Source: Escherichia phage RB43
Length of the DNA: 64,000 nucleotides
Sequence record: NC_007023.1
Direction: 5' to 3' (one strand)
The position numbers were made by a program, and so were the translations under genes. The notes under the pieces are model-generated. The model searched no databases, was not told the DNA's origin, and was given only the letters and a program-made list of their open reading frames with translations. Each line of letters begins with the position of its first letter. Within the stretch, counting starts at the first letter, position 1. Shown here piece by piece: positions 7,622 through 63,694 of the stretch.

Positions 7622-7661
7622 AACATGATCTCCGTTTATAGATATTTATAACCAAGACCGT

Positions 7662-7829
7662 GAGCGAAGCGAACACACGAACGAAGTGAGTGTTTGGTAA
7701 CTCAACTACAGAACTACATAATTATATTTTAATATTTTATATATAGAGAAAAATGTAGTTTTTGGTATACTTTTTGTACAGATGTTAACTATCCGTCTTC
7801 GCTTCGCTTGACGGAACTCGCTTCGCTCG
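7662..7829. repeat. dyad-symmetric intergenic element, copy A
   Basis: Arms GAGCGAAGCGAA...CGAACGAAGTGAGTG / CTCGCTTCGCTCG around a 57-bp core (7712-7768) identical to 42423-42479; core is itself palindromic (AACTACAT...ATGTAGTT). Confidence 0.75.
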
Positions 7830-7903
7830 TAACCTTGAAAAAGTTATTGATCAATTCAATAAATAGGTATATCATACCCATACTTTCAAAAGAGATTGAA
7901 AAC

Positions 7904-8512
7904 ATGAAATCATTCAAAGAACTTATTTCTGAATCTGTTCAGAACAAAAAATTTGCAAAGACAGTTGATCTGGTTGACCGTGGTAATGCTTCAAAAGGTC
8001 AGATCGGTTTCTTACACTTCGCACATGGTGCTGACTACGATGTGTATGCTCCTGATTCTCACGATCTGGCTTACTTCGGTAAAGGCGTTGTTCGTTTGAA
8101 AGGTAAAACCACTGGCAAAACTCAGGCTGCTTATGTTGACTGGGCGAAAGGCACGGTTTCATTCTACAGCGGTGATCCTGCTGATGACCTGAAATTTGAC
8201 AAGCCAGCAAAATTCAAAGGTGCTTCCCTGTACAAAGAAGCGGAAGAGAACATTGATCTGTATAACCAGTTAGCGGAAGATTTCGAAATCGATCTTCCTC
8301 TGGATGAAGCGCTGGTGAAAGGCGGGATCTATAAACTGCCGAGTAACGATATGCACTTGCTGTATACCGGACGCACCAAAACCAAACCAACTGGGGAATA
8401 TGCGGTATTCACTGTTGTTGATGCTTCTGGTAAACCTCGTCTGGTATCCGGCGCACGATTCACCCAGGAATACAAAGGCGACGTAGTAGCCAAACTGGAA
8501 AAAGTCAAATAA
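7904..8512 (+). CDS. internal-protein-like protein with capsid targeting sequence (about 203 aa)
   Basis: N-terminus MKSFKELISE matches T4 CTS consensus MKTYQEFIAE; + gene inside minus-strand block; ATG at 7904 preferred over ORF-track start 7808. Confidence 0.6.
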   Translation: MKSFKELISESVQNKKFAKTVDLVDRGNASKGQIGFLHFAHGADYDVYAPDSHDLAYFGKGVVRLKGKTTGKTQAAYVDWAKGTVSFYSGDPADDLKFDKPAKFKGASLYKEAEENIDLYNQLAEDFEIDLPLDEALVKGGIYKLPSNDMHLLYTGRTKTKPTGEYAVFTVVDASGKPRLVSGARFTQEYKGDVVAKLEKVK

Positions 8513-8516
8513 AAAT

Positions 8517-8547
8517 AAAGCCCCTTCCTTTCGGTTGGGGCTTTTTG
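8517..8547. terminator. bidirectional rho-independent terminator
   Basis: AAAGCCCCTTCCTTTCGGTTGGGGCTTTTT; identical hairpin at 43536-43557. Confidence 0.6.
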
Positions 8548-27481: not shown

Positions 27482-27503
27482 AAGGGGCGCAAGCCCCTTT
27501 TGA
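27482..27503 (+). terminator. rho-independent terminator (GGGGCGCAAGCCCC plus T4)
   Basis: Hairpin after wac stop; same hairpin at 63675-63688. Confidence 0.5.
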
Positions 27504-30704: not shown

Positions 30705-33038
<2,334 letters not shown>

Positions 33039-41037: not shown

Positions 41038-42360
41038 ATGAGTGATAAACACTACACAATTCACAAGTTGATGCGTCAGTCTACGCTTCCGTCTGGTAAA
41101 CGCGAAAAGGTTATCAACGAAGCAACAGGCACGACAGATATCAACGTACAGAACACGCGCCCAGAACTGGTTTCTTTAACTCGCGCCGTGAACAACCTGA
41201 TCTATCATGAACTGGTTGCAGTACAAGAAACTGATTTACCAGTAGCAACGCTTTTTGGTGTTCGTTATCGTAACCCTAACGGCGATATGACTTTCTCCAG
41301 CGCTGCAACCTATTCAGGCCGAATTTCAGGGCGTACAGGCATCGATGATATCGATCTGGCTAAAGCATACGTTAAGGGTGATTTATTCAAGCACGATGTC
41401 ACTGACGTTGTTTATGAGGTTATCGCACCGATTACGCTAAACACCCTGGATACTGACAAAGACACCGCACTGATGAAAGGTGTTTTCCAAAGTAAAATTC
41501 GTCTGGTGAGTGAAGCCGCTGATACATCGAAATACGAAACAAGCGAAGATATCGCATCAACTTCGTTCCAGATGGATCGCTGGAATATTCCGGTACGCTC
41601 TCGTAAGTTTAAAACCGAAATGACGGTTGAACTTATACAGGATCTGGAAGCAAACCAGTTTGAAGCAGATGGGGTTATCGAGGATATTCTGGGTACTGTT
41701 GCCAGTGAAGAAGTTAACAAAGATATCATCCAGACTCTGATCACCGTATCTAAGCGTTATAACGTTAACGGTGTTGTGACTGACGGTATTTTTGATGCTA
41801 CCACGTCTTACACTGCTGCTGATGCTCCGGCATTAGGCCGTATGCTGTATCAATTAGCGTGTGAAATGGGGCAGGAAATGAATAAAACCACTTCATTTGA
41901 TGCTACCTACGTCCTTTGCTCTGCTCGCGTCACAGGCATTCTGGCTGCGTCTGGTTGGATGACCGAAACTGACGAACAACACCCGCTGGCAACTGGTAAG
42001 CTACAGAACGGTTATTATGTCTATACAGACACGAACACCCCGTTTGATTATCTGCTGACAGGCTGTAAGTACGATCTGGGTGATATGGACCATGTTGGTT
42101 CTCTGTTCTTCACTCCGTACACCGAAGCCGACGAAGCAGGTTCAATCAAGGTATCCGTAGATCCGGCATCACTGCAACCGAAAGTAGCAATTCTGATGCG
42201 TTACGGTTTGTCTGTGAACCCGTATACAACTGAAACCGATTCTGATCGCCTGATCAAAGGTGACGATTGGTCTAACCTCGCAGGTAAATCTAAATTGAGT
42301 CAGATCGTAGGTGTTAAATTACCTACCTGGGTTAATCATGTTTTGAGAAGACCATTATAG
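41038..42360 (+). CDS. 24: head vertex protein gp24
   Basis: 440 aa; gp23-like fold motifs (VELIQDLEANQFEA, SLQPKVAILMRYGLSVNPYT). Confidence 0.9.
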   Translation: MSDKHYTIHKLMRQSTLPSGKREKVINEATGTTDINVQNTRPELVSLTRAVNNLIYHELVAVQETDLPVATLFGVRYRNPNGDMTFSSAATYSGRISGRTGIDDIDLAKAYVKGDLFKHDVTDVVYEVIAPITLNTLDTDKDTALMKGVFQSKIRLVSEAADTSKYETSEDIASTSFQMDRWNIPVRSRKFKTEMTVELIQDLEANQFEADGVIEDILGTVASEEVNKDIIQTLITVSKRYNVNGVVTDGIFDATTSYTAADAPALGRMLYQLACEMGQEMNKTTSFDATYVLCSARVTGILAASGWMTETDEQHPLATGKLQNGYYVYTDTNTPFDYLLTGCKYDLGDMDHVGSLFFTPYTEADEAGSIKVSVDPASLQPKVAILMRYGLSVNPYTTETDSDRLIKGDDWSNLAGKSKLSQIVGVKLPTWVNHVLRRPL

Positions 42361-42384
42361 TAATAAAGATCAACAAGGTCAAAT

Positions 42385-42543
42385 GAGCGAAGCGAATTTT
42401 CACGAACGAAGTGAGTGATAGGAACTACATAATTATATTTTAATATTTTATATATAGAGAAAAATGTAGTTTTTGGTATGGTTTTTAACCAGATGTAAAC
42501 TAACATTCACTCACTACGTTCGTTCATGTACTCGCTTCGCTCG
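42385..42543. repeat. dyad-symmetric intergenic element, copy B
   Basis: Same arms and identical 57-bp core (42423-42479) as copy A; arms form an imperfect ~34-bp inverted repeat. Confidence 0.75.
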
Positions 42544-42548
42544 TAAAT

Positions 42549-42576
42549 TTGACTTCTTGATCATAGTGGTTATAAT
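42549..42576 (+). promoter_or_regulatory. sigma70-like promoter (TTGACT-16-TATAAT) upstream of uvsY
   Basis: -35 TTGACT 42549-42554, -10 TATAAT 42571-42576. Confidence 0.4.
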
Positions 42577-42599: not shown

Positions 42600-43022
42600 A
42601 TGACTGAACTAAAACTTGAAGATTTACAGGCTGAACTCGAACAGGATATGTTGATTGATCCTCTGAAACTACAGAGTGAATCAGCAGACATTCCGAAGAT
42701 TTGGTCAAAATGGCTTCGATATCATTCGAATGCTAAGAAAAAACTGATCCAGCTACAGGCCAGGAAAGAAGCAGATGTTAAAGAACGTCTTCTGTATTAC
42801 ACTGGACGGCATGAGACTGAAATGACTGATGTCATTTACACAGGTTCAGGTGAAATTAAGATTGCGATCAATGGTGATCCGAAAATTGTTGAGGTTAACA
42901 AGCTGATCCAGTATTTCGAATTGATTGCAGAATTCACCAGCAAAGCGCTGGACATTGTTAAGAACAAAGGATATTCTATCAAAAATATGTTGGAAATCCG
43001 AAAACTTGAGAGTGGTGCATAA
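42600..43022 (+). CDS. uvsY: recombination mediator UvsY
   Basis: LEDLQAELEQDMLIDPLKLQ, YSKWLRYHS, RLLYYTGR, AFEAG-like C-terminus match T4 UvsY. Confidence 0.85.
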   Translation: MTELKLEDLQAELEQDMLIDPLKLQSESADIPKIWSKWLRYHSNAKKKLIQLQARKEADVKERLLYYTGRHETEMTDVIYTGSGEIKIAINGDPKIVEVNKLIQYFELIAEFTSKALDIVKNKGYSIKNMLEIRKLESGA

Positions 43023-43532: not shown

Positions 43533-43566
43533 AAAGCCCCTTCCTTTCGGTTGGGGCTTCTTTTTT
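43533..43566. terminator. bidirectional rho-independent terminator
   Basis: AAAGCCCCTTCCTTTCGGTTGGGGCTTCTTTTTT; hairpin identical to 8520-8541. Confidence 0.6.
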
Positions 43567-45375: not shown

Positions 45376-46296
45376 ATGAAAATTGATTACGAATTGGTAG
45401 AAGGGTTCCGTGCTCTGCCTACTAAAGAACAGAAAGGCGCACTGGCTGACTACGCTCAAAGCACCTTTGAAGTAAAATTGAACAAACAAAAATCATTCGA
45501 TAACATGCTGGCTGATCTGGAAGCTGCTGTACCAGCGGAAGAAGAAAAACCGGAACTGCTGATTGATTCCCCAGAATCCGCGATCGTTTCGTACACTGGT
45601 AGCGTTGCAATGGATGAACCTGTTGTTAACGCTCCGAACATTCCTGATGTTGTTGTCGATGTGTCGCAGGACTTTATGGATTACGTCAAAGACGTTGCGC
45701 CGGAAGTGGCTGATCAGATTAAATTAGTCCCTGATGTTGTTGTCGATGTGTCGCAGGACTTTATGGATTACGTCAAAGACGTTGCGCCGGAAGTGGCTGA
45801 TCAGATTAAATTAGTCCCTGATGTTGTTGTCGATGTGTCGCAGGACTTTATGGATTACGTCAAAGACGTTGCGCCGGAAGTGGCTGATCAGATTAAATTA
45901 GTCCCTGATGTTGTTGTCGATGTGTCGCAGGACTTTATGGATTACGTCAAAGACGTTGCGCCGGAAGTGGCTGATCAGATTAAATTAGTCCCTGATGTTG
46001 TAGAAGCGTCTGTAACCGCTTCTGACGAGTCCAAAGCTGATATGGCATGGTTGGACGGGTTTAGCCCTACAATCGTTCTGATGGGGCGTAGCGCTCGTTC
46101 TAACGGCTATTATACGTGTCCCTGGTGGATCTACGATTGGATTAAGAAAAATCCAGATTGGTACAAAGATCCTGACCAGTGTCCACACTACAGCGCACGG
46201 GATACCCTGAAATCGCTGGTGTACTACATCAAACGTGATGGTCAAGTTACTGTGCGTGAAACGCGCAACAGCAGTTTCGATACCTTCAAATTTTAG
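45376..46296 (+). CDS. hypothetical protein with 4 identical 29-aa repeats and C-terminal PWWIYD domain
   Basis: 306-aa ORF; repeat PDVVVDVSQDFMDYVKDVAPEVADQIKLV x4; C-terminal YYTCPWWIYDWIKKNPDWY. Confidence 0.6.
   Translation: MKIDYELVEGFRALPTKEQKGALADYAQSTFEVKLNKQKSFDNMLADLEAAVPAEEEKPELLIDSPESAIVSYTGSVAMDEPVVNAPNIPDVVVDVSQDFMDYVKDVAPEVADQIKLVPDVVVDVSQDFMDYVKDVAPEVADQIKLVPDVVVDVSQDFMDYVKDVAPEVADQIKLVPDVVVDVSQDFMDYVKDVAPEVADQIKLVPDVVEASVTASDESKADMAWLDGFSPTIVLMGRSARSNGYYTCPWWIYDWIKKNPDWYKDPDQCPHYSARDTLKSLVYYIKRDGQVTVRETRNSSFDTFKF
45643..45990 (+). repeat. perfect tandem repeat, 4 x 87 bp (plus 11-bp partial fifth unit)
   Basis: Units at 45643, 45730, 45817, 45904 identical by eye; in-frame inside CDS. 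Confidence 0.9.
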
Positions 46297-49862: not shown

Positions 49863-50783
49863 ATGAAACTTGAATTAAACCGCTTCATCAAAGCCGCTGC
49901 TGCTGGCGACCAGTCAAAATACAAATCCCGTCGCGATACCCTGATTGACGATTTCTGTAATCTGCTGGGGTTCAAGCGCTGGCATACTCCGTCTATGCGT
50001 CCAGACTGTGATCCAAAATGGGATTACTTCAAATGGACTCCCCGCGATCGTGGTTATGTCGATAACGTCCGCGTAATGACATTCACTCATATGTACGCAA
50101 ATGCAATAATAGAAGTTGCCAAACGTAATAATTCTACGTACCCGAACGGGTGGAAGGTTGCAGAAGTCATTGAAACCCTGATGCAACTGCGCCGTGAATA
50201 TAAAGCTGGAATGATGATGCAACTGCGCCGTGAATATAAAGCTGGAATGATACGTAAATTGGAAGAACAATCCGAAAGACATGAATATAAAGAATGGTCT
50301 ATCGTCGCAAAATATCTGCTGAACATCACCTATTCGGTTTTCTGTCGCTTCGGAACAAAAGAAATCGGGTTCGGTTCTCATGATATCATTGCAGAAGCCC
50401 GTCATCGCCTGACATACGCGATCCTGAAAATTCAAAATTCCGGTGGTCTTGTTCTGGCTGCATTCTGTGATGAAATTGTGTACTACGGCGATCAGGTTGA
50501 AGTTGAAGGTGTTCACCACGAAAAATTCAACAAACTTGTGTTCGGACAATATAACAGCTATTCATACGGAAACGATATCCGCGTGATGATGCACCCGCGT
50601 ATTATGCTGGATATGGAAGGGTGGGAACCTGGACACGGGATCGGTGATATCGAAAGCCAGCGTGAACGCCGTGTTCGTTCTGTCGCAAAAGCTCGCGAAT
50701 TGATGACGGGTAGCCTTACTGATTACCTGTTCAGAACAAAAGAAGACGTTGAAAAAGAATTTGTTGACTTGTCGGGCGAATAG
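49863..50783 (+). CDS. hypothetical protein (306 aa) containing a 36-bp tandem duplication
   Basis: ORF; MQLRREYKAGMM / MQLRREYKAGMI duplicated in frame. Confidence 0.55.
   Translation: MKLELNRFIKAAAAGDQSKYKSRRDTLIDDFCNLLGFKRWHTPSMRPDCDPKWDYFKWTPRDRGYVDNVRVMTFTHMYANAIIEVAKRNNSTYPNGWKVAEVIETLMQLRREYKAGMMMQLRREYKAGMIRKLEEQSERHEYKEWSIVAKYLLNITYSVFCRFGTKEIGFGSHDIIAEARHRLTYAILKIQNSGGLVLAAFCDEIVYYGDQVEVEGVHHEKFNKLVFGQYNSYSYGNDIRVMMHPRIMLDMEGWEPGHGIGDIESQRERRVRSVAKARELMTGSLTDYLFRTKEDVEKEFVDLSGE
50181..50252 (+). repeat. tandem duplication, 2 x 36 bp (35/36 identical)
   Basis: ATGCAACTGCGCCGTGAATATAAAGCTGGAATGAT(G/A) repeated head to tail. Confidence 0.85.
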
Positions 50784-63672: not shown

Positions 63673-63694
63673 AAGGGGCGCAAGCCCCTTTTTG
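63673..63694 (+). terminator. rho-independent terminator (GGGGCGCAAGCCCC plus T5)
   Basis: Same hairpin as after wac. Confidence 0.5.

Follow-up and report, generated by a model that had tools for sequence, protein, structure and literature searches.

A three-copy module of DNA mini-hairpins around an easily melted core in phage RB43, a candidate replication origin also carried by bacterial islands

Why does a T4-type phage keep the same dyad-symmetric, non-coding sequence at separate places among its core genes? The question is raised by a stretch of 64,000 nucleotides from Escherichia phage RB43 (NC_007023.1), hereafter called the window, in which an earlier note made from the sequence alone had pointed to two intergenic copies of one element, at 7662-7829 and 42385-42543, and had compared their layout to the promoter/stem-loop cassettes proposed to shuffle modules in T4-type genomes. 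The window belongs to Pseudotevenvirus phage RB43 (100% identity over the 2.5-kb stretch compared), and a few indels separate it from the RB43 record HE981739. We found that the element is a non-coding module of about 160 bp, consisting of an AT-rich core and four flanking mini-hairpins, and we tentatively propose that its copies serve as replication origins.

The element and its three fixed sites

Copy A occupies window positions 7660-7830 and copy B positions 42381-42545. The element is present not twice, as first thought, but three times, since BLAST of the element against RB43 recovered a further copy (C), outside the window, at 32170-32325 of HE981739. Copy A lies between gene 3 and a plus-strand open reading frame starting at 7904 (ORF 7904) that T4 does not have, copy B between gene 24 and uvsY, and copy C between rnh and gene 55, as judged from annotated relatives. 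Matches to the element were found in 63 phage records, at about three places in each, and the three sites and their orientation are kept across some 60 RB43-like genomes. In six IMG/VR genomes, all three copies have one orientation, and their flanks can be aligned site by site. No altered gene order was seen around the three sites among the relatives examined, and Yersinia phage JC221, an unclassified relative, carries diverged versions of the element at the matching three sites. Copies A, B, and C are direct repeats with 35-74 kb of essential genes between them, so that recombination between copies would be lethal. The record of Enterobacter phage HK6 (PP337149.1) begins within the site-B core, probably where the assembly was broken at the repeat.

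The arms are local hairpins. The outer arm GAGCGAAGCGA is found at 7662-7672 and 42385-42395 and its inverse at 7818-7828 and 42532-42542, giving the element terminal inverted repeats (GAGCGAAGCGA ... TCGCTTCGCTC). In the whole window, the outer arm and its inverse were matched five times against 0.79 expected, all within copies A and B, and the arms and inverses that the earlier note had placed around the core are thus borne out at both copies. The inner arm CACGAACGAAGTGAGTG lies at 7676-7692 and 42401-42417. On the left of copy A, arm L1 (7660-7674, plus strand) is the mini-hairpin GT-GAGC-GAA-GCGA-AC, with a GNA triloop, two Watson-Crick pairs and tandem G.A pairs, and arm L2 (7676-7692, plus strand) is the hairpin CAC-GA-AC-GAA-GT-GA-GTG. 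On the right, the hairpins form on the minus strand: CCGTC-AAGC-GAA-GCGAA-GACGG for R2 (7793-7814) and the mini-hairpin AC-GAGC-GAA-GCGA-GT for R1 (7816-7830). Copy B is built likewise, with AAAT-GAGC-GAA-GCGA-ATTT as L1 (42381-42399) and TCAC-GA-AC-GAA-GT-GA-GTGA as L2 (42400-42418) on the plus strand; on the minus strand are R2 (42503-42529), a hairpin of 12 pairs with two tandem G.A blocks (ACAT-GA-AC-GA-AC-GTA-GT-GA-GT-GA-ATGT), and R1 (42529-42545), TAC-GAGC-GAA-GCGA-GTA.

All these arms share one anatomy: a C-GNA-G triloop (GAA, GTA, or GCA), one further Watson-Crick pair (G-C or A-T), a tandem G.A/A.G step, and then two to six more pairs that are specific to the arm (AAAT/ATTT, CAC/GTG, CCGT/ACGG, TAC/GTA, or ACAT/ATGT). 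This common model fitted 45 of the 45 distinct arms tested. Pairs 11-17 and 8-20 are formed in every one of them and occur in three pair types each (GC, AU, and CG for the former; CG, UA, and AU for the latter). The covariation score of the arms was 0.373; shuffles gave 0.154, with none of 500 reaching the observed value, and slid controls did not exceed 0.141. Overlapping registers had been filtered from this arm set by pairing pattern, a procedure that somewhat favors the result. The eight genuine arms that the filter excluded form hairpins too, interrupted by a bulge or a small internal loop. Furthermore, the G.A/A.G positions have become Watson-Crick pairs in seven arms, exemplified by CCGACC-GAA-GGTCGG, TTCGC-GAA-GCGAA, and CCTCGC-GAA-GCGAGG. 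Genome-wide, the arm hairpin form is taken by 12 of 1126 CGNAG sites, and nine of the 12 are located in the three elements. Left of the core, the top strand carries the stable GNA sense, and right of it the bottom strand does, in every phage copy examined (22/22). Mini-hairpins of the d(GCGNAGC) kind are exceptionally stable and have been found at the phage G4 origin, in RSF1010 ssiA (CCGAAGG), and in the hairpin promoters of phage N4 (PMC13037366).

The earlier note had described the arms and their inverses as a dyad around the core. Long-range pairing of the arms is not conserved, and each arm folds on itself. A single long cruciform or hairpin made from the arms was rejected because whole-element folds give different pairing partners at each site: in copy C, the partner of the left outer arm is the right inner arm, and at site A of JC221 the left outer arm CCGACCGAAGGTCGG is unable to pair with the right outer arm. 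A coding reading of the 12-mers (GAR CGA AGY GAR, encoding ERSE) was rejected as well, positions 3 and 9 covarying only as G/C or A/T.

The core is identical between copies A and B over 58 bp (7711-7768 = 42422-42479), one base pair more than first reported, and no such match was obtained in 100 shuffles. It had also been described as palindromic, but it is not a full palindrome: an 8-bp inverted repeat, AACTACAT / ATGTAGTT, encloses about 33 AT-rich bases, and an additional direct copy of the heptamer lies at the left. In copy A, the repeats span 7704-7760 on the plus strand, with AACTACA in direct orientation at 7704-7710 and 7712-7718, the inverted ATGTAGTT at 7753-7760, and between them the AT-rich stretch with its conserved center, ATATTTTATATATAGAGAAAA. 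The half-sites of copy B are located at 42423-42430 (AACTACAT) and 42464-42471 (ATGTAGTT).

When duplex stability was computed along the genome of about 180 kb, the three cores took ranks 1, 2, and 3 among the least stable windows of both 40 bp and 60 bp, with the core of A the least stable window and that of B the second. Their stabilities are -36.9, -36.9, and -38.6 kcal/mol, more than 4 standard deviations from the genome mean of -53.7 (standard deviation, 3.4), and the next window is at -40.7. The core is also the least stable window at every JC221 locus and at 6/6 island loci tested (see below). We therefore propose it as an unwinding element, a role that its meltability suggests.

The heptamer is specific to a lineage, and all copies and repeats within a genome change together. 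It reads AACTACA at the left and TGTAGTT in the inverted right repeat of RB43 and RB16, ATGTAC.. / ..GTACAT in GAP161-like phages and Margaery, ATGTCTAC / GTAGACAT in EcRAM-01, and ATGTC(T/C)A / TGGACAT in JC221. Mean core identity is 0.89 between sites in one genome versus 0.75 for the same site across lineages. The right arms behave in the opposite way, showing 0.72 between sites within a genome versus 0.80 for the same site across lineages. These data indicated that the cores evolve in concert within a genome and the arms site by site. Because the direct repeats change together with the inverted one, a sequence-specific reader is suggested rather than a hairpin alone and, as far as sequence comparison goes, the concerted cores argue for a trans-acting reader encoded by the same genome. 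By eye, no Tus/Ter, DnaA-box, IHF, or geminivirus nonanucleotide look-alike was found to be conserved across lineages.

Comparison with replication origins

The ends of the element are bordered by promoters. Fifteen sites in the genome match the sigma-70 consensus at 11/12 positions or better, and four of the 15 bracket copies B and C as outward-facing pairs. Near-consensus promoters lie 2-40 bp from the element ends, each within about 100 bp of an AT-rich core. At copy B, a leftward promoter (TTGACC-17-TATAAT, 42354-42382, minus strand) reads antisense into the 3' end of the late gene 24; it is present in all B copies, including that of JC221, and no credible ORF lies behind it. Rightward, the near-consensus TTGACT-16-TATAAT (42549-42576, plus strand) serves uvsY, the recombination mediator gene (42600-43022, plus strand). 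Copy A has the late promoter of gene 3 on its left and a weaker early-type promoter on its right. The former is the motif TATAAATA directly left of the element (7643-7650, minus strand), which we take to be a late promoter of T4 type, the gene being named from the annotation of relatives; the latter is a sigma-70-like TTGATC-17-TATCAT (7847-7875, plus strand, 9/12 matches). Both window copies lie upstream of plus-strand genes (ORF 7904-8512 and uvsY 42600-43022), as had been reported.

In gene order, site B coincides with T4 oriF, and sites C and A neighbor oriG and oriE, respectively. According to the T4 record, oriF is at the 5' end of uvsY, oriG is inside gene 34 at 2.2 kb from rnh, and oriE is inside gene 5 at 3.3 kb from the gene 3|2 junction; the primer RNAs of oriE and oriG are antisense to late genes. 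In a review of T4, the three origins are placed at points where transcription diverges, oriE is described as 12-nucleotide iterons with an early promoter, and oriF and oriG as a promoter with an AT-rich unwinding element.

Like oriF (ori-uvsY) and oriG (ori-34), the RB43 element has a promoter beside an AT-rich unwinding element, is present in several copies per genome near divergence points, has one copy at the 5' end of uvsY and one near rnh, and is accompanied by transcription of a primer or antisense type into late genes. Unlike them, its copies are near-identical, whereas the T4 origins have no sequence in common; its promoters read away from the core, whereas the MotA-dependent promoters of T4 read into the unwinding element; and its core is flanked by four GNA hairpins, whereas T4 has no hairpin arrays. 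With oriE it shares an early-type promoter, repeats, the gene 3-2-4-53-5 neighborhood, and transcription against late genes; however, oriE is inside gene 5 and consists of evenly spaced direct repeats instead of hairpins in inverted sets.

A second likeness is with plasmid RSF1010 (IncQ), whose ssiA and ssiB are hairpin signals in inverted orientation, one on each of the complementary strands; they are exposed by unwinding and prime 3' of the hairpin (PMC8567376). At its oriV, an AT-rich region is opened first, the inverted signals on opposite strands contain C-GAA-G mini-hairpins, and leading-strand synthesis proceeds outward from priming 3' of the hairpin, with the same strand orientation as in the RB43 element. 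The structural features of an ssi-type arrangement, namely inverted hairpins on opposite strands beside an AT-rich region and C-GAA-G loops, are present in RB43, and CCGAAGG of ssiA is the exact core of two JC221 arms. The plasmid differs in having RepC iterons and dedicated RepA, RepB', and RepC proteins, where RB43 has a T4-type primase-helicase and no RepB' relative was seen, no search aimed at one having been made, and the RB43 element differs in having two hairpins per side, with tandem G.A pairs. The promoters for the virion RNA polymerase of phage N4 are likewise small GNA-triloop DNA hairpins in duplex DNA that are read as single-stranded structures, and their extrusion is driven by supercoiling; yet they serve a T7-like polymerase that T4-type phages lack, and they are single rather than arranged two and two around a melting core.

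The three positions were then compared in a genus that has no RB43 element. Klebsiella phage Tauntaun (Slopekvirus) has RB43-type gene order, and its regions syntenic with A, B, and C (loci L105 6241-6620, L097 1686-2000, and L106 9786-10100) are similar to one another and to nothing else in the 30 kb sampled. They are internally palindromic, dyad-symmetric, extremely AT-rich, and rich in GATC, and no other DNA at the respective locus is less stable. GATC clustering was considered as an origin mark and rejected, for it is found around Slopekvirus sites A and C and is not distinctive in RB43. It thus seems that one function, common to the three positions, requires DNA that is dyad-symmetric and opens easily.

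Our leading interpretation, to which we give a little less than an even chance, is that the three copies are fixed, supercoil-activated replication origins or unwinding elements of RB43-type phages and functional counterparts of T4 oriE, oriF, and oriG. It is suggested by the most meltable DNA of the genome, hairpins of a priming type on the fitting strands, outward early promoters, and an antisense promoter with no coding product, and further by three fixed copies at positions like those of T4 origins, an analogous element in Slopekvirus, and a layout resembling that of rep-ori modules in small replicons (see below). We infer this function, and with it each step of the following scheme. Strong early promoters firing away from the element would load negative supercoils into it; the core would then melt, and the flanking arms would extrude as hairpins and keep the bubble open. 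Specificity would be conferred by a phage-encoded factor reading the heptamers. The single strands beside the hairpins could give the phage helicase-primase a place to enter or to prime, comparable to ssiA and ssiB, and leading-strand synthesis would run bidirectionally outward from the core.

Copies in genomic islands and other prokaryotes

An exact-pattern scan of prokaryotic genomes revealed a complete element in a 12-kb contig without other RB43 similarity. BLAST revealed complete elements in an island within malX of the Escherichia coli CX12 and CX08 chromosomes, in a Citrobacter freundii plasmid, in the 10.8-kb circular pTR_1_35, and in metagenome contigs. The loci outside phages are L135 8095-9178 in E. 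coli CX12, L136 5438-7179 in C. freundii p6_C, L137 3844-4930 in pTR_1_35, L119 2138-2292, and L138-L152. The islands carry the element as a single copy, and it is the sole sequence that they have in common with RB43, as determined by tblastx of seven island loci against RB43.

A gene for an "inovirus-type Gp2" protein was found 200-900 bp upstream of the element in three annotated records and in every metagenome contig with enough upstream sequence (10/10). Its product matches Pfam YagK_YfjJ_C above the cut-off and REP_ORF2-G2P weakly, below the cut-off, and contains HYHCW and SYLAK, conserved motifs of the HUH kind; a PDB sequence search with it returned noise only. In rep-ori modules, such as those of rolling-circle replicons and the SaPI-type ori, with herpes simplex virus oriS as a palindromic analogue, the origin is located beside the initiator gene, and repeats lie on either side of an AT-rich stretch, dyad-symmetric and between divergent promoters. 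The island element next to its Gp2-type gene resembles such an origin beside an initiator gene; the RB43 phage copies, by contrast, have no adjacent initiator gene.

Island cores could be assigned to particular phage alleles, with identities of 0.90-0.99, and none of the three main alleles is missing from the islands. Core allele and HUH protein do not go together: the elements of CX12 and C. freundii are nearly identical and their proteins about 40% identical, and CX12 and pTR_1_35 combine similar HUH genes with different cores. To the right of the element, the islands contain variable cargo, including helicase-like genes, a nucleotidyltransferase, ABC-3C components, and serine recombinases, with defense-type genes among them. 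Homology between island types stops exactly at the right end of the element, which therefore marks the junction of a conserved module with variable cargo. In L137 (4930-4990) and L119 (2300-2360), the island element is followed at about 25 bp by further left-arm hairpins (GAAGCGAAGGACACGAACGTAGTGAGTG), which make up a partial second set.

That the concerted, allele-specific cores are shared with islands implies a phage-encoded reader that the islands exploit. The island element is probably either the origin of a rep-ori pair or a phage origin copied to exploit the infecting phage. In a preprint, Pseudomonas islands with an inovirus Gp2-like core gene and defense cargo were described as satellites transduced by a large lytic phage (bioRxiv 10.1101/2024.08.29.610337).

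The same scan found the tandem hairpin unit in very distant taxa. The unit GAGCGAAGCGA-N-GAACGAAGTGAG occurs in multi-copy repeats of a Coriobacteriaceae metagenome-assembled genome (L107-L118), where it sits at the tips of long palindromes, of Verrucomicrobia (L120-L127 and L131), and of haloarchaea (L130 and L132-L134). At a Prosthecobacter (Verrucomicrobia) locus, L121, it follows a match to a group II intron (RF00029). Agrobacterium tumefaciens MEJ076 (L004 5860-6270 and L129) has six GNA/tandem-G.A hairpins around AT-rich DNA, with three DnaA-box-like GTCCACAA repeats. The L004 cluster is located between a resolvase gene and a gene for a 475-amino-acid P-loop protein, to which no family could be assigned from Pfam, NCBIfam, PHROGs, or tblastn against plasmids; blastn of the region against plasmids gave no match.

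Weighing the readings

Several observations speak against an origin. The RB43 sites are syntenic with oriE and oriG only to a precision of 2-3 kb, and a preference for divergent transcription on both sides confounds the comparison. The RB43 element has a different look from the known T4 origins, and in a control on T4 the annotated oriE, oriF, and oriG were not local stability minima, so that meltability is not a calibrated origin predictor in this phage group and does not amount to proof. Since the flanking promoters fire away from the core, an R-loop of the T4 type in the core is not obviously possible. A transcriptional element with a direction of its own would equally account for the fixed orientation toward a downstream plus-strand gene (uvsY, gene 55, ORF 7904, or island cargo). 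Given its tight link to the HUH gene in islands, the element may be chiefly the substrate of that enzyme and only a passenger in phages; tblastn detected no homologue of the island HUH protein in RB43. Finally, literature searches on RB43 origins or repeats turned up nothing relevant.

Among the alternatives, an infection-specific promoter or enhancer holds up best, although we consider it unlikely. Here, the heptamers would bind a phage activator replacing MotA and thereby drive or time uvsY, the late sigma gene 55, and the capsid-cargo ORF; in islands, the element would be a sensor that switches on the cargo when a matching phage infects. The asymmetric core indeed always faces the plus-strand gene at its right, at the three phage sites and in all island contexts, and the phage-encoded reader implied by core alleles common to islands could be such an activator. 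According to the T4 review, the MotA-dependent middle promoter of T4 uvsY also functions as oriF; at the RB43 element, no MotA box (TGCTT at -30) can be seen, and RB43 is absent from a list of phages with motA, no direct motA search of RB43 having been made. A weak promoter-like site inside the element (TAGAGA-16-TGgTATACT at 7744-7771, plus strand) retains the TAnnnT of TAGAGA-16-TGgTATnnT in most phage copies and has lost it in several island copies. However, its -35 is poor, and the -10-like hexamer is shifted in JC221 and lost in many island copies (TTGACTATTTC). Good sigma-70 promoters are already present between element and genes, at distances of 4 to 38 bp, and an activator site needs neither four covarying single-strand hairpins nor the most extreme meltability of the genome; moreover, there are just three such sites per genome. 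The earlier note had itself named an ordinary regulatory site, with flanking gene order conserved across all relatives, as the outcome that would overturn its proposal. The gene order is indeed conserved in the phages, largely as that outcome had it; the element is still not an ordinary regulatory site.

Decidedly unlikely, in our estimate, is a non-autonomous mobile element, that is, the hairpin-bearing end or origin of the island HUH enzyme, inserted three times in an ancestral phage and with little or no phage function. Its models would be a rolling-circle origin, an oriIS of IS91/ISCR type, or substrates of REP/RAYT type. HUH enzymes act on DNA hairpins, and the element has terminal inverted repeats, is tightly linked to an HUH-motif gene, is the only sequence common to islands and RB43, and ends exactly where homology between island types ends; the same hairpin unit also forms multi-copy repeats in very distant prokaryotes. 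Yet no presence/absence polymorphism, extra or missing copy, or target-site duplication at the ends was found among the roughly 60 genomes, and the sites are kept as far out as JC221. The compensatory changes in the hairpins and the identity of cores within a genome are signs of selection in the phage, an analogous AT-rich element occupies the same three sites in a genus without the RB43 element, and no covariation links the HUH protein to the core allele.

The cassette proposed in the earlier note fares worse, and we now regard it as very unlikely. Promoter-early stem-loops (PeSLs) have been described as short G-loop-C stem-loops fused to an early promoter, located in hyperplastic regions by variable ORFans and recombining to mini-circles (PMC2839356, PMC4122927). 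As boundaries of recombination cassettes, such repeats would act as homology patches to excise, insert, or swap the genes that they bracket. The resemblance is real in that the RB43 element abuts sigma-70-type early promoters, cassettes A and B have an upstream element and a downstream terminator in common, and islands exchange cargo at the element. ORF 7904 is an insertion relative to the T4 gene order, and T4-type phages recombine avidly. Like the PeSLs of RB49/phi1, T4/PST, and KVP40/nt-1, the element is a repeated non-coding motif coupled to early promoters in a T4-type genome, a kind of motif proposed as a recombination site. Size, anatomy, and location do not fit, however: PeSLs are short and numerous and border ORFans in hyperplastic regions, whereas the element is 160 bp long, has four GNA hairpins and an AT-rich core with promoters outside at variable distance, and borders core genes at three fixed sites. 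It was therefore rejected as a PeSL. In addition, relatives show no variation in gene content or order at the three sites, the copies are direct repeats with essential genes between them, and homology patches need neither hairpin covariation nor extreme meltability.

A structured RNA, or a large terminator or insulator formed by the dyad, is hardly credible, even though the strand folds better than shuffles (z = -3.4 for A, -8.9 for B, and -4.9 for C) and copy B follows the highly expressed late gene 24, since no Rfam 15 family was hit at the gathering threshold (generic long-hairpin miRNA models scored far below it for A and B), the flanking promoters point away and nothing is known to transcribe A and C, which lie between divergent genes, the stable GNA sense changes strand at the core so that no one transcript would have all four good hairpins, there is no U-tract, and the long-range pairing differs between sites and is broken at site A of JC221.

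The surroundings of the two window copies are alike downstream as well. A bidirectional terminator-type hairpin (8517-8543) lies between the convergent ORF 7904 and gene 2 and is identical to one at 43533-43559, between the uvsY cluster and the convergent uvsW.1/uvsW, as the earlier note had observed. This hairpin, AAAGCCCCTTCCTTTCGGTTGGGGCTT, has exactly two copies in the genome, one after cassette A and one after cassette B, in all relatives checked. Its GC-rich stem, the run of A before and of T after it (AAAAATAAAGCCCC...GGGGCTTTTTG), and the convergent genes are those expected of a terminator, and a stricter terminator scan did not list it, the loop being longer than 8. In the shared terminator after the site-A ORF of JC221 (L091 9874-9902), the inner part is inverted relative to RB43 (CCAACCGAAAGGAAG versus CTTCCTTTCGGTTGG), and the outer stem is the same. 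Another family of terminator-like hairpins in the window, AAGGGGCGCAAGCCCCTTTT, with a GCAA loop of GNRA type, has two identical copies (27482-27501 and 63673-63692) and variants at 2053, 14979, and 46721.

ORF 7904 (7904-8512, plus strand; PHROG 7322) occupies a place between genes 3 and 2 that is empty in T4. It encodes 202 amino acids in RB43 compared with 261 in RB16 and matches positions 1-203 of the 263-position PHROG profile. A late-promoter-like AATAAATA was read from the sequence at 7859-7866, within the region upstream of it. The N terminus of its product, MKSFKELISE, resembles the T4 capsid-targeting sequence; three ORFs of the window, at 7904, 43795 (minus strand), and 6080 (minus strand), start with MKSF..E.. 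like the capsid-targeting sequence of T4 internal proteins. Two tandem repeats were also noticed: about six copies of an 87-bp unit, three of them identical, just past uvsW (45556-46077), and a perfect tandem duplication of a 36-bp unit at 50179-50250.

No description of the element was found in Rfam or in the searchable literature. Its parts resemble known kinds, namely unwinding elements, ssi hairpins, and iteron-like repeats; what appears to be new is the architecture, the system of alleles, and the occurrence of one element in both phages and islands. A wider claim can be framed, which we regard as rather doubtful when taken as a whole: that the element represents a new origin class, with supercoil-extrudable GNA mini-hairpins, a melting core, and a fast-evolving phage reader, and that the defense-gene islands with an HUH Gp2-type gene are satellites of RB43-type lytic phages, which would copy the origin allele of the helper for over-replication or else recombine into the phage genome through 60-160 bp of perfect homology to ride in its capsids.

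To our knowledge, replication origins of T4-type phages are essentially unmapped outside T4, and those of T4 share no motif. If the origin reading is true, a sequence-defined candidate in three copies would make initiation in T4-type phages directly testable, and it would offer a natural case of extraordinarily stable DNA mini-hairpins arranged in arrays within double-stranded genomes. The allele-for-allele sharing with HUH/defense islands of Citrobacter, Escherichia, and unassigned metagenome contigs points to an unrecognized relationship between phage and island, be it satellite or decoy, and the phages concerned belong to a group used in therapy against hosts of the Citrobacter/Escherichia type.

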